NCBI GenBank assembly: GCA_044866775.1
Contig: JBIOUG010000095.1
Location: 4,415-68,414 of the forward strand
DNA length: 64,000 nucleotides
Source: Thermoanaerobaculia bacterium
GTDB taxonomy: Bacteria; Acidobacteriota; Thermoanaerobaculia; Multivoradales; UBA5704
Direction of reading: 5' to 3'
Below, piece by piece: positions 41,978 through 58,003 of the stretch. Numbering within the stretch: position 1 is the stretch's first letter; each line of letters begins with the position of its first letter. A model generated the notes under the pieces. That model made no database searches, was not told the DNA's origin, and worked only from the letters and a program-made list of their open reading frames with translations. Both the position numbers and the translations under genes were made by a program.

Positions 41978-42101
41978 TCCGAGGCTACCGAAGAGTTCCG
42001 GAAAGCCGTCCATACAGCGTCCTCCCGCCGGCGATCGCTCATGCGACGGTACGTGAAAGTCGAAGGCGGCGGGTCCCAGCTGATTCCTCACGGTTCCAGC
42101 G

Positions 42102-42855: not shown

Positions 42856-42914
42856 ACTGCACCAGAGAGCACCAAGATACCCAGGACACCGGCCTGAAGG
42901 GATGGAATCGGCTC

Positions 42915-43151: not shown

Positions 43152-43548
43152 TCCACTCCAGCGCCGTCGGGGAATGTACCGTCTGTCACGGTACCTCGGC
43201 ATCTATGGCTAAGTGCCGAGAGGTCGTGGCTGAGCGCACACCGCATCGGGCGCGAGGAGCCCGCGACGGGCTCCGCTGCCTCGCGTGTTGCGTATTTCAA
43301 TCATTGACGCTCGGCGAACCGAGCCGATAGTCTGACGGCAGGTAGTCAAAGCGACCAACGGGAGATCGTGATCGACGACGCGTGAAGCCGGCTCGGCGGG
43401 TCCGAGCCGAGACCTCTAAAGCGGGCACGGCAGAGGGCGCAACCTCTGCCGGCCCTGGCCCACACACGAGGAGGGACCTCATGTGCAGACGTAGTCGGAA
43501 GTGTAACCCCCTGCCGGATCCACCGGCGCCCAAGACGACAAGGACACG

Positions 43549-43920
43549 TTGGAGCAGGACCCCGCCGTGGCGCGCGCCCAGGCGCTCGCGGAGAGCGGGA
43601 GGGCCGTGGCGCGCGGGCGCCGCCACGCCGCCGGTGGCGAGTCGAGCGAGTCCGAAGAGCAACAGTCCGCGGCAGCCCTGCGCCGGATCGTCGGCGACTT
43701 TCTCGAGCGGGAGGCGCGGCGGCGGCGGCGGGACGCGCGGGCGCGGGCGGCGCGTGCCAATGGCCGCCGGTTCGCGACGATCTGCGGCCGTTTCCAGGGC
43801 CACGGCAGGGTGCCGGACCTGCGGCTGTCAGGAAAGTGGCTCGCGGACGCGGGCTTCGATCTCGGGCAGCAGTACGAGGTGGAGGTCGAGGCGGGGAGGC
43901 TGACGATTCGGGCGGTCTGA
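43549..43920 (+). CDS. SymE-family (AbrB-fold) toxin-like protein
   Basis: The C-terminal PDLRLSGKWLADAGFDLGQQYEVEVEAGRLTIRAV matches the SymE/SpoVT-AbrB-like signature. The N-terminal Arg-rich extension and the TTG start are uncertain. Confidence 0.55.
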   Translation: MEQDPAVARAQALAESGRAVARGRRHAAGGESSESEEQQSAAALRRIVGDFLEREARRRRRDARARAARANGRRFATICGRFQGHGRVPDLRLSGKWLADAGFDLGQQYEVEVEAGRLTIRAV

Positions 43921-44000
43921 GCCGCAGCCGGCTCACGCTGCCGCCACCATCGACTGAAGCGCTCGGCGAGCCGATATAGCGACGCGGCCGTGGCCGCGAA

Positions 44001-44030
44001 ACCTTCCGGGCGGGTACCCGCCCGGAAGGT
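44001..44030. terminator. perfect 30-bp palindrome between the SymE-like gene and the res gene
   Basis: accttccgggcgggt/acccgcccggaaggt has 15-bp perfect arms. No T-tract follows. Confidence 0.35.
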
Positions 44031-44121
44031 TGAAGCCATTCCCACTTCCGAGTACGCTCGATGGGACTCTGCCCGAAGAAAGACATGACTTTCCTGCGGA
44101 GTTGAGGGCACTAGGCTCAGC

Positions 44122-47100
44122 ATGACCGATCTGTTCTTCCAGCGACCGATCCTCAACTCGCCGTACGAGTACCCGAGCCGGCACTGGGAGCTCGATTCGA
44201 CGGGCCAGCCCACGGGAAAGATCCTCGAGAAGCGCCGTGAAGCAGCGTACATCACGCCGATCCCGAAGCCGAAGAAGCGCAGGACGGGCCAGAGGGAGTT
44301 CGTCTTCGACGAGGGTAAGGGGCTCTCGACGGAGGAGCAGCAGTACGATCCGACGCCGGTCATCAACGCCTTGCGCGCCAAGGTGGACGCCTGGCGGGCG
44401 CTGCCCAATCCGAACGACTGGCTGGTGACGCCGGAGACGGCGCGCCTCCTCCAGCACTGGCGCCACCACGAGTTCAGCGGAGAGCGGCCGTTCTTCTGCC
44501 AGGTCGAGGCGGTCGAGACGCTCATCTGGCTGACCGAGGTCGCACCGAAGCTCGGCAAGGAGGGACAGCGGTTCATCGACCACTTGGACCGGGCCAACGA
44601 ACAGTCGAACCCCGGCCTGCGGCGCCTCGCGCTCAAGCTCGCCACGGGCTCCGGCAAGACGATCGTGATGGCGATGGTAGTCGCCTGGCAAACGATCAAC
44701 GCCGTGCGGCGGCCGAATAGCAGATCGTACACACGGGGGTTCCTGGTCGTGACTCCCGGTCTGACGGTCAAGGACCGGCTGCGCGTCCTCCAGCCCCACG
44801 ATCCGGACTCCTACTACCAAAGCCGCGAGCTCGTGCCGAACGACATGCTCCGCGACCTCGAACGCGCGAAGATCGTCATAACGAACTTCCAGGCGCTCAG
44901 GCTCCGCGAAACCCTCGAGGTCTCAAAAGGCGGGCGCGCCCTGCTCCAGGGACGACATGGCGAGCCGATCGACACCAAGGAGACGGAAGGCCAGATGCTC
45001 CAGCGCGTCCTGCCCGAGCTGATGGGGTTGCGCAACATCCTGGCGATCAATGACGAGGCCCACCACTGCTACCGCGAAAAGCCGACGGAGGCCGACGAGG
45101 AGGAGGCCGAGCTCAAGGGGGAGGAGCGCGATGAGGCCAAAAAGAACCGCGAAGCAGCGCGACTCTGGATCTCCGGGCTCGAAGCGCTCCAGCGCAAGCT
45201 AGGCTTGATGCGCATCATCGACCTCTCGGCGACCCCCTTCTTTCTCCGCGGCTCCGGCTATCGGGAAGGGGTGCTCTTCCACTGGACGATGAGCGACTTC
45301 TCGCTCATGGATGCCATCGAGTGCGGCATCGTCAAGCTCCCCCGCGTGCCGGTCGCCGACAACATCCCCGGCGGCGAGATGCCGAGGTTCCGCAATCTCT
45401 GGGAGCACATTCGCAACCGGATGCCGAAGAAGGGGCGCGGGAAGGCTGGCACGAGCTACGACCCGCTCAAGCTCCCTGTCGAGCTCCAGACCGCGCTCGA
45501 AGCGCTCTATGGCCACTACGACAAGACCTTCGAGCTATGGCGCAAGGCAGGTGTCGAGGTCCCCCCCTGCTTCATCGTCGTCTGCAACAACACCTCGGCA
45601 TCGAAGCTGGTCTACGACTACATTTCCGGCTTCTTCCGCGAGGCAGAAGAGGGCACAAGCACGTTCGAGAACGGTCGTCTACCCCTCTTCCGCAACTTCG
45701 ACGAGCACGGCAACCCGCTCCCCCGGCCTCGGACGCTGCTCATCGACTCCGAGCAGCTCGAGTCCGGGGAGTCGCTAAGCGACGACTTCCGAGCGGCGGC
45801 GGCCGACGAGCTCGAGCGCTTCCGGCGCGAGATCGTCGAACGGACAGGGGATCGCACCAGGGCTGAGAACCTCTCGGATCAGGAAATCCTTCGGGAAGTC
45901 ATGAACACCGTCGGCAAGAAAGGGCGCCTCGGCGAGGGGACACGGTGCGTGGTCTCGGTTTCGATGCTGACCGAGGGATGGGACGCGAACACCGTCACGC
46001 ACGTACTCGGCGTCCGGGCCTTCGGCACCCAGCTCCTCTGCGAGCAGGTCATCGGTCGCGCGCTGCGGCGGCAATCCTATGACCTGAATGAAGAAAAGCG
46101 CTTCAACGTCGAGTACGCCGACGTACTCGGGATTCCCTTCGATTTCACGGCGAAGCCGGTCATCGCGCCGCCGCAGCCACCGCGCGAGACGATCCTGGTC
46201 AGGGCGATCACCCCGGAGCGAGACGCCTGCGAGATCTGCTTCCCTCGCGTGGAGGGATACCGCGTAGAGCTCCCGGAGGAGCGGCTGGCGGCGACCTTCA
46301 CCGAAGATTCAACCCTCCTGCTCACTCCGGCCCTGGTCGGGCCATCGGTGACCCGCAACGAAGGGATCCTCGGCGAGGGGGTCGACCTGACGCTCGTCCA
46401 CACCGGGGAGCTCCGCCAGTCGACGCTCCTCTTCCACTTGACGCAGCGTCTCCTCTACACCAAGTGGCGTGACCCAGGCGGTGAGCCCAAGCTCTACCTC
46501 TTCGGCCAGTTGAAGCGCATCACCCGCGAGTGGCTGGAGAGCCATCTCGCCTGCAAGGGCGGCACCTATCCGGCGCAGCTCATGTACCTGAGCCTCGCCG
46601 ACCTGGCTTGCGAGCGGATCACAGCGGCGATAACCCGCCACTACTCGGCGGAACGCCCGATCCGGGCGATCCTCGACCCCTACAACCCGACGGGATCCAC
46701 CCGCTTCGTCCACTTCACGACCTCGAAGAAGCTCCGCTGGCAGACGGCCCCGAATCTCTGCCATGTCAACTGGGTGATCCTGGACAGCAACTGGGAGGCC
46801 GAGCTCTGCCGGGCCGTCGAGAGCCACTCGCACGTGCTTGCCTATGTGAAGAACCACAACCTCGGTTTCGAGGTCCCCTACAGGATGGGCTCGGAGTCGC
46901 GCCGCTACCGCCCGGACTTTATCGTCCTGGTCGACGACGGGCACGGCTTGGAGGACCCGCTTCACCTAGTGGTCGAGATCAAGGGCTACCGGGGGGAGGA
47001 CGCAAAGGAGAAGAAGTCGACCATGGAGACGTACTGGGTGCCTGGGGTGAACAACCTGGCCGCTTACGGGCGCTGGGACTTTGTCGAGCTGAAGGACATC

Positions 47101-47184
47101 TGGGAGATCGAATCGGATTTCCGGGCGACAATCGACACTGCCATCGCCGAGATGATGAAAGAGAAAACCGGAGCGGCGGTCTGA
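44122..47184 (+). CDS. type III-like restriction enzyme Res subunit (SF2 DEAH helicase + C-terminal PD-(D/E)xK nuclease)
   Basis: The N-terminus is FFQRPILNSPYEYPSRHWELD. Helicase motif I is LATGSGKT, motif II is INDEAHHCY and motif VI is QVIGRALRR. The nuclease motif is YRPDFIVLV...LVVEIKGY. Confidence 0.9.
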   Translation: MTDLFFQRPILNSPYEYPSRHWELDSTGQPTGKILEKRREAAYITPIPKPKKRRTGQREFVFDEGKGLSTEEQQYDPTPVINALRAKVDAWRALPNPNDWLVTPETARLLQHWRHHEFSGERPFFCQVEAVETLIWLTEVAPKLGKEGQRFIDHLDRANEQSNPGLRRLALKLATGSGKTIVMAMVVAWQTINAVRRPNSRSYTRGFLVVTPGLTVKDRLRVLQPHDPDSYYQSRELVPNDMLRDLERAKIVITNFQALRLRETLEVSKGGRALLQGRHGEPIDTKETEGQMLQRVLPELMGLRNILAINDEAHHCYREKPTEADEEEAELKGEERDEAKKNREAARLWISGLEALQRKLGLMRIIDLSATPFFLRGSGYREGVLFHWTMSDFSLMDAIECGIVKLPRVPVADNIPGGEMPRFRNLWEHIRNRMPKKGRGKAGTSYDPLKLPVELQTALEALYGHYDKTFELWRKAGVEVPPCFIVVCNNTSASKLVYDYISGFFREAEEGTSTFENGRLPLFRNFDEHGNPLPRPRTLLIDSEQLESGESLSDDFRAAAADELERFRREIVERTGDRTRAENLSDQEILREVMNTVGKKGRLGEGTRCVVSVSMLTEGWDANTVTHVLGVRAFGTQLLCEQVIGRALRRQSYDLNEEKRFNVEYADVLGIPFDFTAKPVIAPPQPPRETILVRAITPERDACEICFPRVEGYRVELPEERLAATFTEDSTLLLTPALVGPSVTRNEGILGEGVDLTLVHTGELRQSTLLFHLTQRLLYTKWRDPGGEPKLYLFGQLKRITREWLESHLACKGGTYPAQLMYLSLADLACERITAAITRHYSAERPIRAILDPYNPTGSTRFVHFTTSKKLRWQTAPNLCHVNWVILDSNWEAELCRAVESHSHVLAYVKNHNLGFEVPYRMGSESRRYRPDFIVLVDDGHGLEDPLHLVVEIKGYRGEDAKEKKSTMETYWVPGVNNLAAYGRWDFVELKDIWEIESDFRATIDTAIAEMMKEKTGAAV

Positions 47185-50057
47185 TGCCGACGACGAAGAA
47201 GCCGAAGCCCAAGAAGCAAGTGGAGGCGCTCCGCCACGACGAGGCGTCCCGGAAGTACATCCCGACGGCCGAGTACCAGTCGCTGCTCGCATCCAGCGAA
47301 CAGGAAACCGTGGAGGTCCGCTATCCGCGCAACACCTCTGGCCTCGGGGAGGAGACGGCGTCGCGGAACCGGGATCTCGACCCACAGGTCGTCTGGCGCG
47401 GCAAAGACGAGAAGGACTGGTCCGACCTCGTGGTCCCGGCGCCTCCCCTCTTCATTCAGGAGAAGATCCATCCCAAGGTCCTGATCGACGACCTGATGCG
47501 CCGGAGCGCGGCGGCCGCGGCGGAGAAGTCGGCTTCAGAGCCGGGCCATCAGCCCGATCTATTCGCGGACTTCAATGGGATCGCAGATCCGAGCCTGAAG
47601 ACCGAGTTCTACCAGCACGACGCCAACTGGGCGAACCGGATGATCCTGGGCGACAGCCTACAGGTGATGGCCTCTCTCGCCGAGCGCGAGGGCCTCCGCG
47701 GGCAGGTGCAGTGCATCTACATGGACCCGCCCTACGGCATTAAGTTCAACTCCAACTTCCAGTGGTCCACGACGAGCCGTGACGTCAAAGACGGCAACCT
47801 CAACCACATCACCCGCGAGCCTGAGCAAGTCAGAGCCTTTCGCGACACCTGGCGCGACGGCATCCACAGCTACCTGACCTACCTCCGCGACCGCTTCAGC
47901 GTGGCCCGCGACCTTCTTGCTGACTCTGGCTCGATCTTCGTCCAGATCGGGGACGAGAACGTGCATCGTGTTCGCGGAGTGATGGATGAGGTGTTCGGAA
48001 GCGACAACTTCGTCTCGTTGATCACCATCGTGAAGACAACCGGCGCCGGGAGTCCAGCGATTGGAACGAACGTCCTCGCTTCGGTGAACGACTACATCCT
48101 CTGGTACGCGAAGAAACTTCCGAGTATCAAGTATCGTCAGGTCTACGAGCAGAGACAACTCGGCAAAGAAGGGGCTACTCAATACGGCCTCCTAGAGTCG
48201 CCAGACGGGCTGTATGTGCGAGGAATGTCTGAAGAAGAAAAGGCGCAACCCGAATTGATCCCTTCTGGTTGGAAGATCATTGCGCATGACAATCTGACAT
48301 CTCAGACTGGCGCTGAGACAACGCAGGTTCCAATCTCGTGGCAAGGCCGGAGCTACAAGGCCAACAAGGGCGGCTGGAAGACGAATGTAGAAGGCGCGGA
48401 TCGTCTAGCCAAAGCAACGAGGCTTCTTCCGATCGGACACACGCTTCGCTACCGGCGTCGTTTTGCAGACTTCGGCAACATTCCTATCAACAACTTCTGG
48501 TCGGCGTTCAGGATTAGTGGTTTCTCGGATCCAAAGATCTACGTTGTGCAAACGAATCCAGGAATTGTCGATCGCTGTCTCTTGATGGCGTCTGATCCGG
48601 GGGACCTCGTCCTAGATCCCACGTGCGGTTCAGGCACGACCGCATTCGTGGCGGAGCTAGAGGGTAGGCGGTGGATCACGATCGATACATCGCGCGTAGC
48701 ATTGGCGCTAGCGCGGGCTCGCATCATGGGGGCGCGGTATCCGTTCTATCTGCTCGCCGACAGCGAGGAAGGGCAGCGGAAGGAGGCCGAGATCGCGCAC
48801 TCGGAGCCATCGGCGGCGCCAAGGCGGGGCGACCTGCGGCAGGGCTTTGTCTACGAGCGGGTGCCGCACATTACCCTCAAGTCAATCGCCAACAACGTCG
48901 AGATCGACGTCATCTGGGAGCGATTCCAGGCGGCTCTCGAGCCATTGCGCGCGGAGTTGAACGCCGCCCTCGGCCAAGCGTGGGAGGAGTGGGAGATTCC
49001 TCGTGAAGCCGATGTGCGGTGGACTGCGAAGGCGAAGGAGCTGCACTCGAGGTGGTGGGAGCAGCGGATCGCGCGACAGCGGGAGATCGACGCCTCGATC
49101 GCGGCTAAGGCGGTGTACGAGTACCTCTACGACAAGCCGTATGACGATCCGAAGAAGGTCAGAGTCGCCGGTCCGTTCACGGTGGAGAGCCTATCGCCGC
49201 ACCGGGTGCTCGGCGTCAACGAGAACGACCAGCTGATCGACAGTGTCGCCGAGCAGAAGCTCGGGTACACCGTGCAGCGAGACTTCCCGTCAATGATCCT
49301 CGAGAGCCTGAGGGCGGCGGGTGTTCAGCAGGCTCACAAGGAAGACCGGATCGCCTTCTCCTCGTTGACCCCCTGGCCGGGCGATCTCGTTTGTGCTGAA
49401 GGTCGCTACTTCGAGGGTTCCGACAGCAAAGGTCAGGAGAGGCGCGCCGCGATCTTCATCGGTCCCGAGTTCGGCACCGTCTCACGGCCGGACCTGGTCG
49501 CCGCAGCTCGGGAGGCGGCCGACGCCGGCTTCGATGTCCTAATCGCCTGCGCCTTCAACTTCGACGCCCATTCGACCGACTTCTCGAAGCTCGGCCGGGT
49601 CCCCGTTCTCAAGGCTCGGATGAACGCCGACCTCCACATGGCCGAAGACCTTAAGAGCACCGGCAAGGGCAACCTCTTCGTCATCTTCGGCGAGCCGGAC
49701 ATCGAGATCCTGCCGGCGGAGAGCGACCAGATCCGAGTACGCGTCAAAGGCGTCGACGTCTTCCACCCCCAGACCGGCGAGATCCGCAGCGACGGCCCCG
49801 AGGGCATCGCCTGCTGGTTCATCGACACCGACTACAACAAAGAGAGCTTCTTCGTCCGCCATGCCTACTTCCTTGGCGCCAACGACCCCTATAAGGCTCT
49901 CAAGACCACCCTCAAGGCCGAAATCGACGAGGATGCCTGGGCGACTCTCCACAGCGACACCTCGCGGCCGTTCGAGAAGCCGAAGTCGCGACGGATCGCG
50001 GTCAAAGTCATCAACCATCTCGGCGACGAGGTGATGAAGGTCTTCCGCGTAGAGTAG
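47184..50057 (+). CDS. site-specific DNA methyltransferase (Mod subunit; beta-class N6A/N4C MTase)
   Basis: The ATG at 47184 overlaps the res stop. Motif IV is IYMDPPYGIKF and precedes motif I, LVLDPTCGSGTTAFVA. It is the C-terminal 957 codons of track ORF 46530..50057. Confidence 0.9.
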   Translation: MPTTKKPKPKKQVEALRHDEASRKYIPTAEYQSLLASSEQETVEVRYPRNTSGLGEETASRNRDLDPQVVWRGKDEKDWSDLVVPAPPLFIQEKIHPKVLIDDLMRRSAAAAAEKSASEPGHQPDLFADFNGIADPSLKTEFYQHDANWANRMILGDSLQVMASLAEREGLRGQVQCIYMDPPYGIKFNSNFQWSTTSRDVKDGNLNHITREPEQVRAFRDTWRDGIHSYLTYLRDRFSVARDLLADSGSIFVQIGDENVHRVRGVMDEVFGSDNFVSLITIVKTTGAGSPAIGTNVLASVNDYILWYAKKLPSIKYRQVYEQRQLGKEGATQYGLLESPDGLYVRGMSEEEKAQPELIPSGWKIIAHDNLTSQTGAETTQVPISWQGRSYKANKGGWKTNVEGADRLAKATRLLPIGHTLRYRRRFADFGNIPINNFWSAFRISGFSDPKIYVVQTNPGIVDRCLLMASDPGDLVLDPTCGSGTTAFVAELEGRRWITIDTSRVALALARARIMGARYPFYLLADSEEGQRKEAEIAHSEPSAAPRRGDLRQGFVYERVPHITLKSIANNVEIDVIWERFQAALEPLRAELNAALGQAWEEWEIPREADVRWTAKAKELHSRWWEQRIARQREIDASIAAKAVYEYLYDKPYDDPKKVRVAGPFTVESLSPHRVLGVNENDQLIDSVAEQKLGYTVQRDFPSMILESLRAAGVQQAHKEDRIAFSSLTPWPGDLVCAEGRYFEGSDSKGQERRAAIFIGPEFGTVSRPDLVAAAREAADAGFDVLIACAFNFDAHSTDFSKLGRVPVLKARMNADLHMAEDLKSTGKGNLFVIFGEPDIEILPAESDQIRVRVKGVDVFHPQTGEIRSDGPEGIACWFIDTDYNKESFFVRHAYFLGANDPYKALKTTLKAEIDEDAWATLHSDTSRPFEKPKSRRIAVKVINHLGDEVMKVFRVE

Positions 50058-50242
50058 CGAGTTGACTACCCTTTGCCGCCCCGACCTGCTTGATCCTGCC
50101 GGCCTGGTCCTAGGGTACAACAAGCCCCACAGGGCTTGCGCCCGAGGAAGATAGCCTCTATGCTGCGCGAGCACTCATATCTCATGTCGTGATCCCGTTG
50201 GCGCTGGAGCGTCGAGCCCTGGCCGGTGAAGGAGGGACCCGC

Positions 50243-51193
50243 ATGGCAACAACTGCGCCCAGAGAACCGAAGAAACGCACTCTGACCTATCGTCGAGCTG
50301 TCTGGCATGTAGCCGAGGACCACGACCTTCAATACTACGTCCGTCGAATCCATCAGCGACTGACCACCACTCGCGCGCGAACCTTTCAATACACGGGCGG
50401 TACCGTGCTCACCGGCATGTGCTTTGAGAGCCGGCACGGCTCCGCACTCGGTCATTTAGCTCAGTTCGTGCCACATGACCACGCCTCTACAATTCCTGTT
50501 CCCTCGGTGGAACTTGCAGACTCAGATGCGGCCGAGCTCCCGCCCCCCCGCGGCCGTGAATTCCTGACAGGAGATCTCTTCTTCTTGGTGCATGGCAACA
50601 ATGTTCTCCTCTGCCCTAGCGGCGCGCGCGAAAGTGCACTAAAAGCTTATCTTGATAGGGCTGGCGAGGCAACCGGCGAGCGCGGTTTGATGAGCAGATG
50701 CGGCATTGAGCCTGTGGCTAACGTGGCTAAATTGGCTCTCATACGCGAAGAAGGAGTCAAGAGTATTCAATTGGACGCGACGCTCTTCTCGGCGTCGCTG
50801 ATGGACGAGCAAGTCCCTACTGTTCGCCGTCACGTGCTGAGTCGGGTCGGCGATAGCCTGCTTGACCTGTTCGGAGACGACCCCGATCTGGCTCAGGCGG
50901 CCGAAGACGAGAATATAACTGTTTATTTGGAAGTAGTTTTCGACAAACGAAGGAAGGGCGGAGTGATTGGTCAGAGGAGGATGCAGGGGTTGGCCAGCCA
51001 GCTAGTGAAGGAGCATGAGCCTGGATTTCGTATCGTCACTGGGAGTGGCGGCGTGATTGAATCCGACGAACTCAAGATACAACAACCTGTGCCATTGAGG
51101 CCACGTGGAAGCAGCGTTGAAAGAGAGCATGCTTGGGAAGCTCTTCTCGGATTCCTTGAAGACCTGCGCCGAAGCGGAGCGCTAGAGACATGA
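50243..51193 (+). CDS. hypothetical soluble protein (316 aa), first gene of low-GC two-gene cassette
   Basis: A GGAGGG lies 6 nt upstream of the ATG at 50243; the track ORF starts at a GTG at 50189. No TM segments and no motif recognised. The stop overlaps the next start (ATGA). Confidence 0.6.
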   Translation: MATTAPREPKKRTLTYRRAVWHVAEDHDLQYYVRRIHQRLTTTRARTFQYTGGTVLTGMCFESRHGSALGHLAQFVPHDHASTIPVPSVELADSDAAELPPPRGREFLTGDLFFLVHGNNVLLCPSGARESALKAYLDRAGEATGERGLMSRCGIEPVANVAKLALIREEGVKSIQLDATLFSASLMDEQVPTVRRHVLSRVGDSLLDLFGDDPDLAQAAEDENITVYLEVVFDKRRKGGVIGQRRMQGLASQLVKEHEPGFRIVTGSGGVIESDELKIQQPVPLRPRGSSVEREHAWEALLGFLEDLRRSGALET

Positions 51194-51720
51194 AGCCCCA
51201 AATAAGCAAGGCGGAGGTTGCGTTTTTCGTCTTGACCCTTGTTGCTAGCTGCGTAGCCGCTCGCTATGTTCAGCCGCTGATTCATGGAGATAAGGAAGCG
51301 ATCGGGCTCATCGCTACTGTATTTTCTATCTTGGCCGGACTCTTGGTGGGAATCATAACCCTTGTTGCGGATACGTCGAGCCTGCCAGGCAAGACGTGGC
51401 GGGGCGTTGCACTCGCGCGGCCGATTCTTAGGCGGCGCTTGTATCGTCATCGCGTACTGTTCCTCGTCTATCTCGTCACGCTTCTGCTAATACTGGCGGC
51501 ATTAATTGTAGATGATGGATCGGGAGGCAAGATTGTAAAGTGGTTGGAAAGGGTATATATTTTTTTCGCCGCCGTAGGATTCGCTTACTCATTGCGTCTA
51601 CCCTGGACGCTGGCTCGCATGCAAGAAGAGCGACTAAATGCGGCCATCGAGGAACGGCGCCAGCAAGCCGGCGCAGCGGCAAGCGGCGTAACGGAAGCGA
51701 AGGAAGGCCGGATCGAGTAG
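51190..51720 (+). CDS. hypothetical four-TM membrane protein (176 aa) with charged C-terminal tail
   Basis: Hydrophobic segments lie at about residues 8-27, 37-60, 88-107 and 122-141. The tail is MQEERLNAAIEERRQQAG. The gene is translationally coupled to the upstream gene. Confidence 0.65.
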   Translation: MKPQISKAEVAFFVLTLVASCVAARYVQPLIHGDKEAIGLIATVFSILAGLLVGIITLVADTSSLPGKTWRGVALARPILRRRLYRHRVLFLVYLVTLLLILAALIVDDGSGGKIVKWLERVYIFFAAVGFAYSLRLPWTLARMQEERLNAAIEERRQQAGAAASGVTEAKEGRIE

Positions 51721-51811
51721 CCCGCTCGCTGACACGTTTACCTGACCAGCCGCCGCACCACTCCATCAGTTCCTCATCCCGCACCGACAGCCGCGCTAAC
51801 TCGGCCGCGAG

Positions 51812-51965
51812 CGCCCTTGAGCCGAACACCAGACGGCCGTAGAGCTCGGACGTCCGTTGCTCGGCAATCGTCCGTTGGCGACGGGGGCGAACTAGGGACC
51901 TTGGGGATCAGGTCGAGGAGGCGGTCGAGGTAGCGTGTCGCACAGGGGGACGCACAAGATGGCAC
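51812..51965 (-). pseudogene. fragments paralogous to the genes at 54217-54750 and 52823-53566
   Basis: 51812-51881 is about 80% identical to 54399-54468 (RQRTIAEQRTSELYGRLVF versus RQRGIAEQRTTELYGRMVF). 51895-51935 resembles 52905-52935 (YLDRLLDLIPKV versus HLDRLLEIILKV). Neither fragment has an intact ORF. Confidence 0.45.
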
Positions 51966-52161
51966 TACGGCGAGACCATCGGGTTCGAGCCGGGCGCCTC
52001 TCGACGAAGGCGCCTCGCCTCACTTCCAGCTGCGCGTATCGGCGGTCTGCTCTACGAACGCGAGAGCTTCTCTCTCCGATCGGCGACGGCTGACGAGGAG
52101 CGATTGACGGCGAGCCTCCTGCTCCGTGTCGAGCCGCCGCTGCGCGCCGAGGCGGCAGGCT

Positions 52162-52509
52162 TCACCCGGGCGGAACGCCGAGGGCGATCATCAGGGCCCG
52201 ATCGACTCGGCGCATCACAGCGGCAGGGAGGGTTGCGGCGGGGCCCTGGAGCTGCTCCTTCCAGAGAGTGTAGATCTCGGCGCACTTGACGACGCTGGCT
52301 CGCTGGAGGCCGGCCGTTCCCTTCGGCAAGCTGACCTCCCAGTCGAAGTCGCGTCCCAAGCGGCCGACGGAAGTCAAGTGCACGACCAGCACTTTCAGGT
52401 AGCGCTCGTTGGCGTTGAAGGCGTCGTCCGAGACCACGAGCATCGGCCGGCGCTTCTCTGCTGCGCCACGCATCGGCACTTTTGCCCACCAGATCTCGCC
52501 ACGCCGCAT
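52162..52509 (-). CDS. type II toxin, PemK/MazF family
   Basis: MRRGEIWWAKVP....RRPMLVVSDDAFN...LKVLVVHLTS...SVVKCAEIYTL is the MazF pattern. The start is placed at the internal Met; the track ORF extends to 52569 and overlaps the antitoxin gene out of frame. Confidence 0.8.
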   Translation of the reverse strand: MRRGEIWWAKVPMRGAAEKRRPMLVVSDDAFNANERYLKVLVVHLTSVGRLGRDFDWEVSLPKGTAGLQRASVVKCAEIYTLWKEQLQGPAATLPAAVMRRVDRALMIALGVPPG

Positions 52510-52513
52510 TGCC

Positions 52514-52759
52514 TTACTCTTCGCGGTCGAAGGCTTGGACGTCGATGAGCCCTTCGTCTTCGTCGCCATACCCGCGGTCGCAATAGGTCGCCACCTGCTC
52601 TGCCAAGAGATCCCGCCGCACTCGCTCGAGCTTCTCGTCGATGGCCTCGCGGATGAGCTCCGAGCTGGTGCGGTAGCGGCCGGTCTCCACGATCTCTCGG
52701 ATGCGCTCCAACTGGGCCGGCTCGGCGGTGAACACGGTCTTGCGCTTGGAAGCTGCCAT
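52514..52759 (-). CDS. ribbon-helix-helix antitoxin (CopG/ParD-like)
   Basis: RKTVFTAEPAQLERIREIVETGRYRTSSELIREAIDEKLE. Has an acidic C-terminus and lies 4 nt upstream of the MazF-like gene. Confidence 0.75.
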   Translation of the reverse strand: MAASKRKTVFTAEPAQLERIREIVETGRYRTSSELIREAIDEKLERVRRDLLAEQVATYCDRGYGDEDEGLIDVQAFDREE

Positions 52760-52822
52760 GATCCAGTAGACTAACTTGGTCGACGGTTTCGGTCAACCAA
52801 GCCTGGGGACCCCCAACCTCCC

Positions 52823-53566
52823 TCACGCCCCGAGCAGCCTCGGCAGGTACTCCGCCAACGCCGGCAGGTACACATGCGCCTTCGCCAGCAGCGCCTCGAC
52901 CTTGAGGATGATCTCGAGCAGGCGGTCGAGGTGATCCAGGTTCAGCGCCCCGCCCTGCTTCTTCACCCGCAGGTAGTGGACGGTGAGCTTGCCGACGGCG
53001 CGCTCGACGGCCTCCTCGAGGCCGCGGGCGCCGTGGATGCGGTAGTCGGCGACGGCGGCGCGGAGGGACTGGAGGATGTCGAGGGAGACCGAGCGGAGGG
53101 CGGGGTCGAGCTCGGCGCGGGCGGAGAAGGCGAAGAGGGAGTTGAGGCGGGCCTCGAGCTCGGCCAGGTCGTCGGGCGGCAGGATTAGCTCGGGGAGCTC
53201 CTCGGCGATGCGCAGGCCGCAGAACTCGACGGACTGGAGGACGATGTCGGAGAGGCCCTCCTGGAACGGGGGGTAGCGGCGGGAGTCCTGGTCGAGGCGG
53301 GCGGAGAGGAGGCCCTTCCTGGCCGCCGGGAAGTGGCGGAGGTAGCGCGGGGGGTCGAGGCCGGGGATCGCGGCGATCGCGGCCTGGGACTGGGCGAAGA
53401 GGTCGTCGAGGAGGACGAGCTTGCGGCGGATCGCGAGGTCGTCGGCGGGGTCGAGGTCGAAGACCTCGCCCAGGGCGTCGCGGATGGGGCGGCCCTCGCG
53501 GCAAGCGGCGCGCAGGGCGAGCAGGAGGCGGTGGAGGCGGAGGGCGGAGTTGGTCATGCGGTCCAT
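52823..53566 (-). CDS. hypothetical alpha-helical protein (247 aa)
   Basis: High third-position GC. The N-terminus MDRMTNSALRLHR is shared with the upstream pseudogene. No motif recognised. Confidence 0.6.
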   Translation of the reverse strand: MDRMTNSALRLHRLLLALRAACREGRPIRDALGEVFDLDPADDLAIRRKLVLLDDLFAQSQAAIAAIPGLDPPRYLRHFPAARKGLLSARLDQDSRRYPPFQEGLSDIVLQSVEFCGLRIAEELPELILPPDDLAELEARLNSLFAFSARAELDPALRSVSLDILQSLRAAVADYRIHGARGLEEAVERAVGKLTVHYLRVKKQGGALNLDHLDRLLEIILKVEALLAKAHVYLPALAEYLPRLLGA

Positions 53567-53575
53567 GGGGAGGCC

Positions 53576-54127
53576 TCAGTCCTCTCCGATCGTCTGCGCC
53601 TCGCCCTCGACGTCGGGCGCGGGGGTCCGCCAGTCGCGGCCGACATGCACCTCGTGCTTGCCGGGCGCGCCCCAGCGGACGAGGACCAAGTCGACGGGAT
53701 CGCGCCAGCCGTTGCGGGGCGGCTGGGCCGGCCGCTCGAGGCTGGCGAGGAGGCCGCCGTCGAAGCGGCAGGCCGAGCACCATGCGCAGGAGGGCCGCGG
53801 CGGCCTGGTTGCGCGGGACCTCCGTGTTGGTGCGCAGGCCCGGCGCGAAGGGCTCGCCGTCCGGCGAGGCGAGCGCGTGGTAGAGGCGGAGGGCGCGGCC
53901 GAGCCAGTCGAGGGCCAGGGCGCGGAGCTTCGGGGCGCCGGGCCGCCGGCGAGACCGAGGATGCGGCGGTAGTAGGGCACCTCGCGCGGGTCGGAGACGA
54001 TCTTGCCGGCGAGGCAGTCGGCGAGGCGGGCTTGGAGGGCGACGTGGGCGCGTTGCGCAGGGCGCATCGGGAACCTCCATGAGTCGGGGCGGTGGAGGCG
54101 GGGGGCGGAGTTGGTGGTACGTTGCAT
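53576..54127 (-). pseudogene. hypothetical gene with two compensating frameshifts
   Basis: The ends are in one frame (MQRTTNSAPRLHR...PREVPYYRRILGLAGG and FDGGLLASLERPAQPPRNGWRDPVDLVLVRWGAPGKHEVHVG). The middle codes convincingly only in another frame, with nearly 100% GC3 (PKLRALALDWLGRALRLYHALASPDGEPFAPGLRTNTEVPRNQAAAALLRMVLGLP). Confidence 0.5.
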
Positions 54128-54216
54128 GGGCTCTCGTTCGACGCGGGCGCGTTGAGGGAGGGCGGTGCGCCGCCGGCGGAGGTCAGATCTCCGCCGGCGG
54201 CCGTTGGTTTTGCCCG

Positions 54217-54663
54217 TCAGGGCTTGCGGGTCGGCTCCTCCTGAGCCGGGGCCGGAGCCGGGCCGGGCGGTTGCGGTGGCGGGACGGCGCCAGGCGCCGG
54301 CGGGGTCGTCTCCTCCTCCTCCTCCTTCTTTGCGGGTCCAGGGAAGGCGTTGGGCCGGAGGCCGAGCTCGTGGAGGACGTTGGCGCGCTTGCCGTAGGTG
54401 CCCTTGAGGACGAACACCATGCGGCCGTAGAGCTCGGTAGTGCGTTGCTCGGCGATGCCCCGTTGGCGGTTTGCCTCGCGGAGGCGGCCTTCGTGGACAT
54501 CGGCCTGGGTGAGGAGGGCGTCGATCTGCTGGACGAGGGCGGTCAGCTCCGCGTGGTCCTCCCTGAGGAAGGAGACCTCCTCGATGCGGGGCTTGAGACC
54601 CTCCGCGAGCACTCTCCAGTCCTGGAGCTTGTCTGCTAGCGATCCGTCGGGCACGGCGGTCAT
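54217..54663 (-). CDS. hypothetical coiled-coil protein with Pro/Glu-rich tail
   Basis: MTAVPDGSLADKLQDWRVLAEGLKPRIEEV.... The ATG at 54663 overlaps the stop of the upstream repeat ORF (ATGA). The track ORF extends to 54750, into the 21-bp array. Confidence 0.5.
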   Translation of the reverse strand: MTAVPDGSLADKLQDWRVLAEGLKPRIEEVSFLREDHAELTALVQQIDALLTQADVHEGRLREANRQRGIAEQRTTELYGRMVFVLKGTYGKRANVLHELGLRPNAFPGPAKKEEEEETTPPAPGAVPPPQPPGPAPAPAQEEPTRKP

Positions 54664-55016
54664 CTCCTTTCGTTGCTCAAGACGAGCGAGGAAGCGCTCC
54701 GGATAGAGCTCCGGGCGCTGGGGATACATCTCCGAGCGCTGGGGATACATCCCCGGTCGTTGGTGATGTATCTCCGGTTGTCGGTGATGTATCTCCCGTC
54801 ATTGGTGATGTATCTCCGGCCGTTGGAGATAGATCCCCAGGCGCTGGGGATGAATCTCCGGGCGCTGGGGATACATCCCCCAGGCGCTGGGGATAGATCC
54901 CCAGGCGTCGGGGATAGATCCCCGGGCGTGGGGGACACATCTCCGGCGGCTGCTACGACAACTTCCAGGGCCCGGATCGTCACCCCGCCCTCTGGCGCGG
55001 TTCCGCCGTCCGTCAC
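54660..55016 (-). CDS. possible heptad-repeat ORF spanning the 21-bp array (coding status unresolved)
   Basis: 118-codon ORF bounded by a GTGA overlap with the upstream gene (55013-55016) and an ATGA overlap with the downstream gene (54660-54663). It reads GDVSPTP GDLSPTP GDLSPAP then RRFIPSA RRYITND... Third-position GC is only moderate, and other frames are also open. Confidence 0.3.
   Translation of the reverse strand: MTDGGTAPEGGVTIRALEVVVAAAGDVSPTPGDLSPTPGDLSPAPGGCIPSARRFIPSAWGSISNGRRYITNDGRYITDNRRYITNDRGCIPSARRCIPSARSSIRSASSLVLSNERR
54694..54946. repeat. tandem array of about 13 units of 21 bp with a palindromic core (GGGGAT-AC-ATCCCC)
   Basis: Examples are gcgctggggatacatctccga (54715), gcgctggggatacatccccgg (54736), tcgttggtgatgtatctccgg (54757) and gcgctggggatagatccccag (54884). 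One unit has 22 bp (54862-54883). Confidence 0.9.
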
Positions 55017-55321
55017 GCCCCGAACTCCAGCGCCTCGGCCACCAGGAAGTCCCGCTCGGTGACGCCGTCGACCGCCGCCGTCGAGAGGTTGACGACGACG
55101 GTGCCCGGCGTCAGGGTCATCGTCGCTTCGCCCTCGTGGTAGTCGATGACGGAGGCGAGGGCGCTCGCGAAGGAGCTGCCGACGTAAAGGCTGGGGACGC
55201 TCCAGGTGCGGCGGATGGCCCTGCCGTCGCGCCGGAGCTCCCAGGTGGGGAGCCGCTCGAGGAGCGCTTGGATGCGCTCGGCCTTGAGCTGCTCGGTGAT
55301 GGGTCTGCGGCTCTCGTTCAT
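55013..55321 (-). CDS. pterin-4a-carbinolamine dehydratase (PCD/DCoH)-fold protein, catalytic His motif not conserved
   Basis: MNESRRPITEQLKAERIQALLERLPTWELRRDGRAIRRTW.....FASALASVIDYHEGEATMTLTPGTVVVNLSTAAVDGVTERDFLVAEAL parallels the PCD pattern, but YHEGEA replaces the HHP motif. A GGAGG lies 9 nt upstream of the ATG at 55321. Confidence 0.5.
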   Translation of the reverse strand: MNESRRPITEQLKAERIQALLERLPTWELRRDGRAIRRTWSVPSLYVGSSFASALASVIDYHEGEATMTLTPGTVVVNLSTAAVDGVTERDFLVAEALEFGA

Positions 55322-55385
55322 CTCAGGTTCCTCCAGGACTTCAGGGGCGCCGGGAGGCTCCAGTGCCTCCGGCGGGACAGCGGTC

Positions 55386-55447
55386 TTGCTACTCCAACCA
55401 AGCCCCCGCCGCTTCGCGGCCCACCCTGACCGGCTTCGCCGGTCAGC
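55386..55447. repeat. 62-bp element, copy 1 (inverted relative to copy 2)
   Basis: ttgctactccaaccaagcccccgccgcttcgcggcccaccctgaccggcttcgccggtcagc. It contains two hairpins, gccgc-ttc-gcggc and ctgaccggc-ttc-gccggtcag. It is intergenic, just 3' of the 55450..56940 gene. Confidence 0.9.
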
Positions 55448-55449
55448 GG

Positions 55450-56940
55450 TCATCGCGCCGCTCCTCCGCCGCGGCGGCGCGCGCCGGCGGCGGTGAAGGG
55501 AAGGAGGTTCGACTGCGGAGGACGGCGGCGCAGCGGCTCGGTCAGCGCCGGATCGAAGAGGACGCCGAGCCCGCGCAGCGGCCCCGGGCCTCCCGGCACG
55601 CGCTGCCCGAAGCGGCGCTGGAGGCCGGCGATGCGCTCGGCCTCGGCGCTCCCGCCGCGGAGCAGCCCGCGCAGCTCGCGCAGGAGGGCGCGCAGCTCGC
55701 TCGGCAGCGTCTCGGGGGCGAAGAGCGGCTCGATCTCGTCGGCCAGGGCGGCGAGACGCCCGCGCCGCTGCTCATCGGCAAACAGGACGGCGAGGTGGAA
55801 GGCCGCCGCGGCCGCCTCGCCCCAAGCGCTCGCCCCCTTGGCGGCGGCGAGCGCCTCGCGGAGCAGGCGCTCGGTCGCCTCGCGGTCGCCCGCCTCGGCG
55901 GTGAGCCAGGCCCGCGTCAGGAGGGCCAGGGCGGGAGTCCCCGCTCCCGCGGCCGTCGCCTGCCGCTCGGCCTCGGCGAGGGCCTCCTGCGCCGCCCATG
56001 GGTGACCGACCGCGGCGTGCATGAAGGCGAGGAGGAGCCGCTCGCGGAGCGCTTCGGCCGGCGCCAGCCACGCCTCGCGCAGCGCGAGCGACCGCCCGGA
56101 GAGCGCGAGCGCCCGCTCGGTGTCTCCCTCGCGGGCGTAGATCGCCGCCTGGTCGGCGACGGCGAGGGACTCCTCCACCGTCTCGCCCCTGCGGTGGAAG
56201 AGACTCTCCGCCCGCTCGAGCAGTGCCAGCGCCTCGTGGATCCGCCGCTGGCGGTCGCGGACGCCGGCGAGGAGGCGACAGAAGACCGCCGCCTCGACGT
56301 CCTCTGGATCGGCGATGTGGCTCTCCGCGACCCGGAAGGCCAGCTCGCCCGGGTCCTGGGGCAGCCGCTCGATGAGCTCGGTGTAGCCGCACAGCATGTG
56401 GACGCGCGCCTTCAAGTCGGCGAGGAGCGCCGGCGGCAGGCCGGCTTTCTCGACGGCGCAGCTCAGGTGGAAGGCGGCCTCGGCGAGCGCGTGGCCGCGG
56501 CTCGGGAAGGGGTAGCTCTCCTCGTAGGCGCGGTCGAGGACCCGCAGCAGGATGGCGACCGCCTGCGGCGCCGGCTTCTGCCGGAGCTCGCGCTCCATCT
56601 TCCTGACCGGCAGCGCGAGGAGCCCCTCGATCGCGGCGTCGGCCTCCGCGGCCGCCATGGCGACCGCCGTCGACGACGCGCTCGGCTCCGCAGCGAGGCG
56701 CGTGAAGACGCTCTCGTAGAGCTGACCGGCGAAGCCGGTCAGGGTGGGCCGCGAAGCGGCGGGGGCTTGGTCGGAGTAGCAAACCCGCGCCGCCCCGGCC
56801 TCGGGCGCGAGCTCCGGCAGCAGCCGGCGCACGCGGCGGCGGCAGAGGCGGCAGGCGAGGAGGTGATGGAGGTGCTGGAGCTGCGGGGCGGCGAGGCCGT
56901 CGGCCAGGCGGGCGAGATCGTCGAAGGGGACGTGCGCCAC
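55450..56940 (-). CDS. hypothetical regulator-like protein: N-terminal HxxxCxxC zinc-finger (zf-HC2-like) + alpha-helical/TPR-like body
   Basis: LQHLHHLLACRLCRRRV lies near the N-terminus. The body is long, Ala/Leu/Glu-rich and helical. The gene has a GTG start and is divergent from an XRE-type HTH gene. Confidence 0.55.
   Translation of the reverse strand: MAHVPFDDLARLADGLAAPQLQHLHHLLACRLCRRRVRRLLPELAPEAGAARVCYSDQAPAASRPTLTGFAGQLYESVFTRLAAEPSASSTAVAMAAAEADAAIEGLLALPVRKMERELRQKPAPQAVAILLRVLDRAYEESYPFPSRGHALAEAAFHLSCAVEKAGLPPALLADLKARVHMLCGYTELIERLPQDPGELAFRVAESHIADPEDVEAAVFCRLLAGVRDRQRRIHEALALLERAESLFHRRGETVEESLAVADQAAIYAREGDTERALALSGRSLALREAWLAPAEALRERLLLAFMHAAVGHPWAAQEALAEAERQATAAGAGTPALALLTRAWLTAEAGDREATERLLREALAAAKGASAWGEAAAAAFHLAVLFADEQRRGRLAALADEIEPLFAPETLPSELRALLRELRGLLRGGSAEAERIAGLQRRFGQRVPGGPGPLRGLGVLFDPALTEPLRRRPPQSNLLPFTAAGARRRGGGAAR
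56721..56782. repeat. 62-bp element, copy 2 (inside the 5' part of the 55450..56940 CDS, in frame)
   Basis: Its reverse complement matches copy 1 at 61 of 62 positions. It encodes CYSDQAPAASRPTLTGFAGQ within the protein. Confidence 0.9.
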
Positions 56941-57121
56941 CGATCGTTCCTCAGCCGCGCGGGAGGCGGGCGGGCGCTGGCGCCCAAGGGGTGCAGGAGA
57001 CGCGATAGCAGGTGTGATCGCCGGTCATTGCGGTTGATCAGACCAGCAACAGGTGGAGTTGTCAAGCCCCGTCCCCGCTGACAGGTGCAATGCACCGGCT
57101 GCACCGGTATAGACTCCCTTC

Positions 57122-57538
57122 GTGGAACCCCGCCCGCCGGGACGGCTCGACACGGAGACCATGCGGGAGGCGCTCAGGCGCCGCATTCGCCGTGAGGGGC
57201 TGACCCTGCGTCAGGTCGAGGAGCGGCTGGGGCGGAAGGGCGACTACCTGCGGCAGGTGCTGGCCGGGAAGATCGACCTGCGGTGGGACCACGTGGCCGG
57301 CATCCTCGCCGCCCTCGGCGTCCACCCCGTCGAGTTCTTCGAGGAGGTCTACGGCCCGGCGCCGAGCCGCGCCGCGCCGGCCGGCTCCGCGGCCACCCCG
57401 TACGCGACGAGCAGTCAGCTCGTCCGCTGGTCGAGCCTCCGCGTCCTCATCTGGGAGTTCAAGGAGAAGGGCATCTTCACGGCCGAGGAGGCCGAACGGT
57501 TGCTGGCGAAGCTCGAGAGCGAGCCGCCGCCGGTGTAG
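57122..57538 (+). CDS. XRE-family helix-turn-helix transcriptional regulator
   Basis: LTLRQVEERLGRKGDYLRQVLAGKIDLRWDHVAGILAALGVHPVEFF. The start is uncertain: a GTG at 57122 or an internal ATG. Confidence 0.7.
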   Translation: MEPRPPGRLDTETMREALRRRIRREGLTLRQVEERLGRKGDYLRQVLAGKIDLRWDHVAGILAALGVHPVEFFEEVYGPAPSRAAPAGSAATPYATSSQLVRWSSLRVLIWEFKEKGIFTAEEAERLLAKLESEPPPV

Positions 57539-57634
57539 GCCGCGTGCGGCGGTCCTACCCGCTGGCGGTCGCATAGTGCCGCACGGCCTGTCGACCGGGG
57601 CGAGCCGCGGGAACGGCGGTTGATTACGGCGGTG

Positions 57635-58003
57635 TTAGAGCAAACTGCCGATGAGCACGGCCGCGATCACGAGAGTGCCCAGTAGACCCATGACGATGCC
57701 GAAGATTGCCCGTCCCATGCCGTGTCGCTGGGGGTGACGCTTGATGTCGATCACCGCCAGGATTCCCGTGACCAGGGCGAACGGCGCCGGCAGGATCAAG
57801 AGCGAGAAGAGGCCCAGGTAGCCGGCGGCGATTGCCCAACCTGATCGACCGACGGGCAAGATCATTCGCATCATCGGGTCCTGGCCCGCCGGTTGCGAGG
57901 CTGGCGACGGTTGGCTGCGGGGGCGAGGCTTCCCGCATTGTGGGCAGGCGAGGGCGGTGTCAGAGACCTGCGCCCCACACTCCGGACAGGCTACGAGCGC
58001 CAT
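57635..58003 (-). CDS. zinc-ribbon + DUF4190 membrane protein
   Basis: CPECGAQVSDTALACPQCG is followed by two TM helices (GWAIAAGYLGLFSLLILPAPFALVTGILAVIDI...GIVMGLLGTLVIAAVLIG). A GAGGAGGGA RBS is present. Confidence 0.75.
   Translation of the reverse strand: MALVACPECGAQVSDTALACPQCGKPRPRSQPSPASQPAGQDPMMRMILPVGRSGWAIAAGYLGLFSLLILPAPFALVTGILAVIDIKRHPQRHGMGRAIFGIVMGLLGTLVIAAVLIGSLL

Follow-up and report, generated by a model that had tools for sequence, protein, structure and literature searches.

A tandem array of 21-bp dyad-symmetric units upstream of the p141 gene family in Thermoanaerobaculia: a candidate cis-acting DNA element

ArgR operators of E. coli consist of two to four ARG boxes of 18 bp, imperfect palindromes that are spaced 21 bp from centre to centre on one face of the DNA. 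The sopC centromere of plasmid F is built from 12 direct repeats of 43 bp, each containing a 16-bp inverted repeat that is bound by SopB (PMC3177203). Another type of repeat, MIRU, is an intra-operon minisatellite situated between cistrons, in which an open reading frame (ORF) reaches up to or into the neighbouring stop and start codons and for which coupled translation has been proposed (PMC12548453). Here, a tandem array of 21-bp units is compared with these systems. It lies in a stretch of 64,000 nucleotides from a Thermoanaerobaculia bacterium (assembly GCA_044866775.1, contig JBIOUG010000095.1), the whole of which is called the window. The array is located in a minus-strand operon that runs from the gene of a 496-aa protein over a DCoH-like gene, the array itself and the Shine–Dalgarno sequence AAGGAG to the gene of a 146-aa protein. 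The name p141 is used for this protein and its homologues, through which the related loci L001-L025 were gathered; the window copy is labelled WIN. An earlier reading of the window (the original prediction) had offered a heptad-repeat protein, an operator or iteron array and a hairpin array as options. The explanation favoured here, at somewhat less than even confidence, is that the array is a non-coding, cis-acting DNA element made of phased, dyad-symmetric protein sites that gates transcription into p141.

Tandem Repeats Finder (TRF) reports a single array in this region, with a period of 21 bp, 12.0 copies, 79% matches and a score of 182. Splitting by hand gives 12 units, the first of which is degenerate; 11 of them measure 21 bp and one (54862-54883) measures 22 bp owing to one more G in a run of G, a base that is not present in the orthologous arrays of L020 and L021. 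The original prediction had counted 13 units, but the starts that it listed, from 54694 to 54926, are 12 positions; on the unit length and on the place of the 22-bp unit, hand splitting agrees with it. In the sense orientation, i.e., on the minus strand, the unit consensus is CC-GGRGAT-NT-ATCYCC-AR-SSS, and three central units (54757-54819) carry the variant GGAGAT-AC-ATCACC. From centre to centre the cores are 21 bp apart, with one spacing of 22 bp. When the entire window is searched for the palindrome GGRGATNNATCYCC with at most one mismatch, 11 matches are found, all of them within the array, against a chance expectation of 0.66, and this number was reached in 0/100 shuffles, which bears out the palindromic core that had been claimed for each unit. 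Information content amounts to 1.68 bits per position in the arms of the palindrome, 1.12 in the spacer and 0.61 in the centre. The GC content of the array is 63%, that of the array with its flanks 63-72% and that of the genome ~72%.

The related loci come from uncultured Acidobacteriota/Thermoanaerobaculia genomes and from metagenomes. There are 25 of them, 22 being distinct, and five are paralogous copies on one chromosome of 5.46 Mb (OY969474). A tandem array with a 21-bp period and 4-13 units is found directly upstream of the ribosome-binding site (RBS) of p141 in 21 of the 22 distinct loci, and it is kept beside homologues as distant as those of L023 (~45% identity) and L024 (~27% identity). 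A single spacing departs from the period in WIN (22 bp) and another in L023 (20 bp); otherwise the period stays at 21 bp while arm length and inner spacing (2, 5, 1 or 7 nt) differ by array type. Elsewhere in the 288 kb covered by the window and the loci, no comparable array was found except for two unrelated 20-bp arrays. Its presence at 21 of 22 loci and its near-absence elsewhere therefore make the array a conserved and specific attribute of the p141 locus rather than a random minisatellite. The number of units changes in clean steps of 21 bp (12 in WIN, 13 in L021, 9 in L020), and L001 differs from L005 by one clean indel of 21 bp. Unit-by-unit identity is kept between WIN and L021, in which the three GGAGAT-AC-ATCACC units occupy the same relative place. 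The array of L017 is decayed. In the literature, neither an equivalent in Thermoanaerobaculia nor relevant 21-bp palindromic intergenic repeats were found to be described. As a separate observation, L023 contains a second array (3894-4023; 6.5 x 20 bp) with the palindrome CTAAG-c-CTTAG, upstream of the gene that precedes its 21-bp array. Furthermore, conserved genes of L005, L006, L009 and L010 (OY969474.1) are split over several frames, being either pseudogenes or the product of indel errors in a long-read assembly, so that single-base indels in these loci are not to be trusted.

Inverted half-sites underlie every array, and about 10 half-site types exist across the loci; the five paralogues in OY969474 have five mutually different types. 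The half-site core of WIN, GGGGAT, is also that of L020 and L021. The others are GCGGAT (L001, L005), GGGAT-cg (L008), GGAGAT-cg (L009, L011), CGAGAT alternating with GGAGAT (L010, L012, L018), GGTATC (L006), GGAAC (L007, L015), TCAGC-n-GCTGA (L013, L014, L022), TGCGG-n5-CCGCA (L016), GCGGGA / GCGGCA (L019), GGAGATCTCC (L023) and TTCCA-s-TGGAA (L024). In every array, the arms are the most informative part with 1.35-1.89 bits, compared to 0.3-1.1 for the central dinucleotide and 0.7-1.1 for the 7-nt spacer. A comparison of orthologous units (WIN-L021, L009-L011 and L010-L012; 32 unit pairs) yields 0.034 substitutions per site for the arms, whereas the centre (0.20) and the spacer (0.21) change about 6-fold faster (Fisher p=4e-13). 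The two 6-bp arms are thus under strong purifying selection, and the centre and spacer evolve freely.

The palindromes could be read as DNA half-sites or as RNA hairpins. Compared with shuffled sequences, the array folds strongly on the sense strand (z=-7.4) and on the antisense strand (z=-8.0), as is expected of any palindromic array. At five of the six arm pairs, the arms are more complementary than after a global shuffle (p<0.0005; p=0.12 for the outermost pair), but not more so than after a shuffle within the array (p=0.17-0.93). The arms therefore vary independently around a half-site common to the array and do not follow the partner in their own unit. G·T accounts for 29 and A·C for 50 of the 190 arm pairs that are not Watson-Crick pairs; the other 111 are of different kinds. 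Most of these mismatches are of the transversion type, and there is no bias towards G·U. The innermost T/A pair is invariant and flanks the 2-nt centre, where it could not close a loop. Per-unit hairpin pairing as the selected property, and with it the hairpin array of the original prediction, is disfavoured by these patterns. A dimeric, sequence-specific reader of duplex DNA, in contrast, predicts the pattern seen here: inverted half-sites that are conserved, a centre and a spacer that are free, and sites that are exactly two turns apart.

According to the favoured explanation, the array would act as 11-12 copies of a 14-bp site in which the 6-bp half-site GGRGAT occurs twice, in inverted orientation, on either side of a free 2-bp centre. 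Since the sites are exactly two helical turns apart, all of them would be on one side of the helix. They lie in the transcribed gap just upstream of the RBS of p141, where a dimeric and probably oligomerising sequence-specific protein might fill them cooperatively, duplex DNA rather than RNA being its presumed target. The nucleoprotein filament formed in this way would act as a gate, either a roadblock or an autoregulatory operator array, for transcription that arrives from the upstream genes and continues into p141 and the genes following it, and the locus-specific half-sites would prevent cross-talk between the copies in one genome. From the options of the original prediction, the operator array is the one supported by conservation of position and period at 21 loci, by selection on the arms and by the locus-specific half-sites.

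Because each paralogous locus has its own half-site and cross-talk within the genome is not expected, the reader should be sought in a cassette formed by the array and p141. The paralogous loci show ~90% DNA homology on both sides, which breaks at the array and at the C-terminal part of the DCoH-like gene. Between L001 and L003, p141 has diverged with a synonymous rate (dS) of 0.51 and a non-synonymous rate (dN) of 0.165. For the ZAS-like protein encoded first in the operon (fam0) these values are 0.26 and 0.029, and for three other proteins of the cluster they are 0.02 and 0.014 (p137), 0.06 and 0.017 (p315), and 0.12 and 0.027 (p247). The break in homology and the excess of dS and dN in p141 indicate that array and p141 are an old, co-inherited cassette within recently homogenised flanks. 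Moreover, p141 accompanies every array and differs in all five paralogues, which holds for no other protein nearby. The cognate reader is probably encoded in this cassette, and linkage makes p141 the prime suspect. A further-reaching idea, which is possible but on the whole doubtful, is that array and p141 form an unrecognised recognition module, in which p141 would represent a new long-helix, coiled-coil class of DNA- or RNA-binding proteins that polymerise on a phased array of their own dyad-symmetric sites, site and reader switching specificity as a cassette. Other candidates for the reader were rejected. The XRE regulator, proposed earlier as a binder, is an unlikely one: the copies of L001, L006 and L009 are 95% identical although their arrays are of three different types, those of L009 and L011 are only 41% identical although these loci have the same array type, and the regulator has an operator-like palindrome of its own that differs from the array core. 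The short DCoH-like protein does not appear to determine specificity, since it is ~92% identical between L009 and L015 (aligned sequences) and their arrays are unrelated. The proteins p137, p315 and p247 are likewise uncoupled from the array type, and the N-terminal residues of p141, tried as a key to the array types, gave no consistent mapping.

Several elements weigh against the favoured explanation. The unit is not perfectly symmetric: on the sense strand its centre reads GT/CT 35 times and AC/AG 10 times, with the flanks CC...AR, and such deviations would also fit a role at the transcript level. The array is transcribed with the operon and no terminator is predicted before it; in L024 a sigma70-like promoter, TTGACG-17-TACTAT, is located upstream of the array, and no promoter was found adjoining the array in the window. 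At L025, the locus of a distant homologue, there is no array, and two AT-rich palindromes are found at a promoter instead. The structural model of p141 is a helical hairpin with a long helix, without a DNA-binding fold recognisable in the AlphaFold2 (AF2) model or by Foldseek, and the variable residues of the protein are scattered rather than clustered. The p141 proteins of L001 and L014 are 88% identical and their cores differ, whereas those of WIN and L021 are 82% identical and share the same core. Finally, the XRE, ZAS-like and short DCoH-like proteins are all uncoupled from the array type.

Part of this evidence leads to an explanation at the RNA level, which is rather unlikely but a serious rival. 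The array would then be an element in the intercistronic or 5′ untranslated region of the p141 mRNA, a row of stem-loops or single-stranded motifs that is recognised by an RNA-binding protein or that tunes stability, processing or translation initiation of this mRNA. The Arg-rich helix of p141, the co-oriented genes around the array without a terminator before it, the promoter upstream of the array in L024, the orientation-specific centre and flanks, and the strong folding of the sense strand would all agree with this. So would further conserved hairpins in the leader and tail of the gap, one of them with a compensatory change in L021, and the conserved hairpin after p141. However, the left and right arms do not covary within the arrays, their mismatches show no sense-strand G·U bias, the antisense strand folds at least equally well, and the invariant innermost pair leaves no room for a loop. 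Pairing alone also does not explain a strict 21-nt period despite changing arm and loop sizes. A permissive scan of 52000-58000 against Rfam 15 gave nothing near any gathering score; the CRISPR-DR8 match at 54565-54599 reaches 20.5 bits against a threshold of 39 and is outside the array. A reader at the RNA level that recognises sequence rather than pairing is possible. Two more specific readings of the array were rejected: a CsrA sponge, because GGA motifs are not general and do not occur in L006 or L016, and an ECF sigma factor promoter, because most array types are without GGAAC, although this motif is present in the units of L007 and, as GGAACTT, in the 20-bp array of the window. It has also been considered that the array is a centromere- or iteron-like site of an integrated mobile or multi-copy element, diversified against incompatibility. 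Although the architecture matches that of sopC (PMC3177203), five copies with their own cores share one chromosome, and the block is mosaic with variable cargo and has toxin-antitoxin or defence genes nearby, we regard this as improbable. Family searches of the conserved block revealed no ParA, ParM, TubZ, Rep, integrase, relaxase or Cas protein. The AF2 model of p315 (pTM 0.84) has no NTPase-like or other significant Foldseek/PDB match; as p315 is neither ParM- nor ParA-like, the idea of a partition system was dropped. With tblastn, neither p141 nor p315 found a homologue among 72,556 plasmids, nor did p247 among 50,697 phage records; p141 relatives are absent from IMG/VR contigs. As for an iteron origin, there is no Rep-like protein, and the flanks of the array lack an AT-rich unwinding region and DnaA boxes.

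Translation of the array, either as a heptad repeat or as an ORF that couples p141 to the upstream gene (reading GDxSPxP or xG(I/M)YPQR), is very improbable. The idea is prompted by a period of seven codons, by the precedent of MIRU (PMC12548453) and by an ORF of 118 aa in WIN, the GTG start of which overlaps the stop of the DCoH-like gene (GTGA) and the TGA of which is 5 nt before the GTG of p141. The GDxSPxP frame of L021 likewise begins at this GTGA and ends at this TGA, and in WIN the additional G of the 22-bp unit and a 61-nt deletion jointly keep this ORF open. The change of register that had been described for the GDxSPxP reading at the 22-bp unit is borne out by frame analysis. However, the arrangement is not conserved in other loci and the frame relation to p141 varies even between close relatives. 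The 118-aa ORF is probably not a functional gene, although it may be translated in passing. At least four frames had been reported open across the window array, a slight overstatement: three are fully open (one on the plus and two on the minus strand), and the fourth, xG(I/M)YPQR or MYP frame, which has the highest GC content at third codon positions (GC3), is interrupted by a TGA exactly where it had been placed, at 54799-54801. This best-GC3 frame is also stopped, by TAG, in L010, L012 and L018. Open frames are not specific to the sense strand: among 14 non-redundant arrays, 31/42 sense and 24/42 antisense frames are open, and at least one is open in 14 loci on the sense strand versus 13 on the antisense strand. 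The array frames have a GC3 of 0.48-0.71 in the window, and in no locus does it exceed 0.86, compared to 0.86-0.98 for the flanking and other genes of the window; the GDx frame, which is always open, has a GC3 of ~0.3-0.5 in most GAT-class arrays. Counts of synonymous and non-synonymous substitutions (MYP frame 10/16, GDx frame 14/12, p141 as a control 17/6) reveal no purifying selection on a peptide in any frame. The apparent synonymous excess in the GDx frame is a by-product of geometry, because the symmetric degenerate positions 2, 5, 14 and 17 share one codon phase owing to the 2-nt centre. Divided by codon position of the MYP frame, the substitutions number 14, 29 and 30, unlike those of a coding sequence; they follow the dyad axis rather than the codons. 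The third codon positions in the arms are invariant and use codons that the host disfavours (TAT, CAT, ATA and CAA). Gene callers place no separate gene in the gap except for a 43-aa antisense call in L021. Taken together, the array does not look protein-coding and the heptad-repeat option is disfavoured. There is, finally, hardly any likelihood that the array is a neutral minisatellite generated by slippage, with incidental palindromy. Its variable copy number, the 21-bp indel between L001 and L005, the decay in L017 and the missing array of L025 would speak for it. Yet the array persists at the same site down to ~27% identity of p141 while its sequence turns over completely, arms differ 6-fold in rate from spacer and centre, WIN and L021 have retained unit-by-unit orthology, and comparable arrays are essentially absent elsewhere in 288 kb of the same genomes.

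The features of the operon and its surroundings are listed in Table 1. The 496-aa protein is homologous, by clustering and tblastn, to proteins of 254-280 aa that are encoded at the same position in related loci. In the DCoH-like protein of the window, YHEGEA stands in place of the catalytic HHP motif. The stop codon of its gene is 66 nt upstream of the first array unit. In most related loci, too, the array follows a DCoH-like gene, which is either long or a short version of 71 aa.

Table 1. Position of the array, its cores and the neighbouring features in the window.
Feature	Coordinates	Strand	Basis or remark
Tandem array, 12 units	54694..54946	-	TRF, unit listing, palindrome search, unit-by-unit orthology with L021
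Eleven 14-bp dyad-symmetric cores GGRGAT-NN-ATCYCC	54720..54944	.	Palindrome search, information content
118-aa ORF through the array (probably not a functional gene)	54660..55016	-	ORF list; GC3 0.71
First operon gene, 496 aa, N-terminal HxxxCxxC (anti-sigma ZAS-like) motif	55450..56940	-	ORF, GC3, family clustering, tblastn
Upstream gene, DCoH/Pterin_4a-fold, 102 aa	55013..55321	-	Pfam PF01329 E=1.7e-14; GC3 0.95
Shine–Dalgarno sequence of p141, AAGGAG, 9 nt upstream of GTG	54664..54669	-	Sequence
Downstream gene p141, 146 aa from GTG at 54654	54217..54654	-	Homologues start MPDxSL
GC-rich hairpin, 33 nt, 15 pairs (GCCGCCGGCGGAGATCTGACCTCCGCCGGCGGC)	54169..54201	.	Terminator-like match directly after the p141 stop
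p247, downstream gene of the cluster	52823..53566	-	74-95% identical across loci
XRE-type HTH regulator, divergent	57122..57538	+	Pfam HTH_31

As the homologues of p141 all begin with MPDxSL, the true start of the gene is the GTG and not one of the ATG codons upstream. The Shine–Dalgarno sequence and the start context are kept in L021, L020 and other loci, and an ATG at 54663, which touches the Shine–Dalgarno sequence, is probably not the start. Public annotations that place the start inside the array are artefacts with artificial heptad-repeat N-termini. One example is a 177-aa NCBI protein (P0001, window 54217-54750), which begins MYPQRSEMYPQR and over-extends p141 into the array; another is P0143 (337 aa, L024 338-1351), where the gene call again runs through the array and the N-terminus reads ARTQWKS/ADFHCKS. 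The AF2 model of p141 (pLDDT 72) comprises helices at residues 10-27 and 32-100, followed by a disordered Pro-rich tail. In a search of representative proteins, its homologues form 320 clusters at 50% identity, all of them unnamed metagenomic sequences. No match was obtained for p141 in Pfam, PHROGs, PADLOC, NCBIfam or PDB sequences, and Foldseek of the AF2 model against the PDB came back empty. An exact-sequence look-up gave no record for the p141 and DCoH-like proteins of the window. Among all proteins of the cluster, these databases matched only Pterin_4a, HTH_31 and TPR; p247 and p137 were not assigned to any family, and p247 has no Pfam, PDB or phage match.

Directly behind p141, the hairpin of Table 1 is nearly identical in L009-L012, L020 and L021, although p141 and the array vary, and it marks the right edge of the variable cassette. 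Its T-run is on the plus strand only. Its role may be that of a boundary of the cassette, of a site for processing or of a terminator acting in both directions. At the other end of the operon, the intergenic stretch towards the XRE gene contains the 6+1+6 palindrome GGTGCAtTGCACC (57084-57096), with a TTGACA hexamer (57060-57065) just downstream; the palindrome differs from the array core and is probably the own operator of the XRE regulator at the operon promoter. The window copy of the cluster is decayed at 53582-54127, where the 137-aa gene (p137) is missing, and the 315-aa gene (p315) is left as three overlapping, frameshifted fragments in different frames. When window 54655-54700 is aligned with L021 5895-5985, the window turns out to have lost a 61-nt tail that separates the last unit from the RBS in the relatives, where it holds the conserved hairpin CTCCGGG..CCCGGAG, with a compensatory change in L021.

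A low-GC island (0.58-0.66 compared to ~0.72) covers 42000-52000 and contains a gene for a ResIII helicase/endonuclease (44089-47184). It is followed by a MazF/PemK toxin with an RHH antitoxin at 52162-52759, and the region 42000-52000 looks like horizontally acquired defence cargo adjoining the cluster. The window as a whole is rich in defence-type genes (TIR-STAND-TPR, ResIII endonuclease and the MazF/RHH pair), and no PADLOC model matched the conserved block itself. The 20-bp array at 8041-8481, to which the 21-bp array had been related, does exist, but it is not dyad-symmetric and the motif that both share occurs at chance level (CCGGGCGCT, 9 matches versus 4.6 expected, which is not significant), so that kinship between the two arrays is not supported. 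The 20-bp array consists, at 8130-8470, of ~17-22 units GTTCCGnTyyCGGGCGCTCrA with a period that is not a multiple of three, and is flanked by two divergent genes, which encode a TIR-STAND-TPR protein (5237-8032, minus strand) and an AAA_14/DUF4143 ATPase (8521-9792, plus strand). The 120-bp and 360-bp repeats that TRF reports at 5411-6211 are the TPR repeats of the former gene, i.e., coding and ordinary.

If array and p141 indeed form a recognition module, up to five copies would be insulated from each other in one acidobacterial genome, in analogy to the incompatibility groups of plasmids or the immunity types of phages, but in a chromosomal cluster that is possibly related to defence. It would also be a case in which a cis-element and its reader diversify together, position, 21-bp period and dyad remaining fixed and the half-site being rewritten about 10 times. 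The p141 family would then be added to the few proteins that form filaments on phased arrays of sites, and would offer a handle on an opaque multi-copy gene cluster of uncultured Acidobacteriota that lies among defence-type genes.

The array resembles the sopC centromere of plasmid F in that twelve or so direct repeats adjoin one another and each contains an inverted repeat as the site of a dimeric protein (PMC3177203). Tandem repeats that each hold a palindrome, here of 6+2+6, are the architecture of sopC and parC. In sopC-type sites, in parC of R1 and in the pSK41 centromere, the array adjoins its own operon and the repeats diverge between related systems, and the same is seen here. However, the units of those sites measure 43 bp or 10-20 bp rather than 21 bp, and no partition NTPase or known centromere-binding fold is encoded near the array, which is chromosomal (in a 5.46-Mb genome), has no plasmid or phage relatives, and is placed inside an operon, upstream of an RBS. 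An intercistronic ORF that abuts stop and start, as in MIRU, is present in WIN and L021 but is inconsistent in other loci. Moreover, MIRU units are 40-100 bp long and belong to a dispersed, apparently mobile family, whereas the 21-bp unit is dyad-symmetric and unique to its locus, and the array is ancestral to the p141 locus instead of inserted. MIRU-like dispersal was not seen, the core being confined to the array within the 64-kb window and each locus having its own unit. CRISPR arrays similarly keep short palindromic repeats while the intervening sequence varies, and their repeats differ between systems in a genome. They combine repeats of 23-50 bp with unique spacers of similar length, in contrast to contiguous 21-bp units with 7-nt spacers that are related by descent and evolve neutrally; here there are no cas-like matches, nor does any Rfam CRISPR-DR family reach its threshold. 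The ARG boxes share imperfect palindromes, a 21-bp distance between centres and an oligomeric repressor on one face of the DNA. Conserved half-sites, free centre and spacer, and a spacing by whole helical turns are the geometry of phased operators. ArgR operators have 2-4 boxes of 18 bp, as opposed to 8-13 boxes of 14 bp here; there is no ArgR-like gene, and the half-site is locus-specific instead of common to a regulon. The array thus does not fit the partition sites, iterons, MIRUs, CRISPR arrays or known RNAs. The closest known architectures are a sopC-type centromere or phased operator boxes at 21-bp spacing, from which the array stands out by the locus-specific rewriting of its half-sites and by its tie to an uncharacterised protein family.

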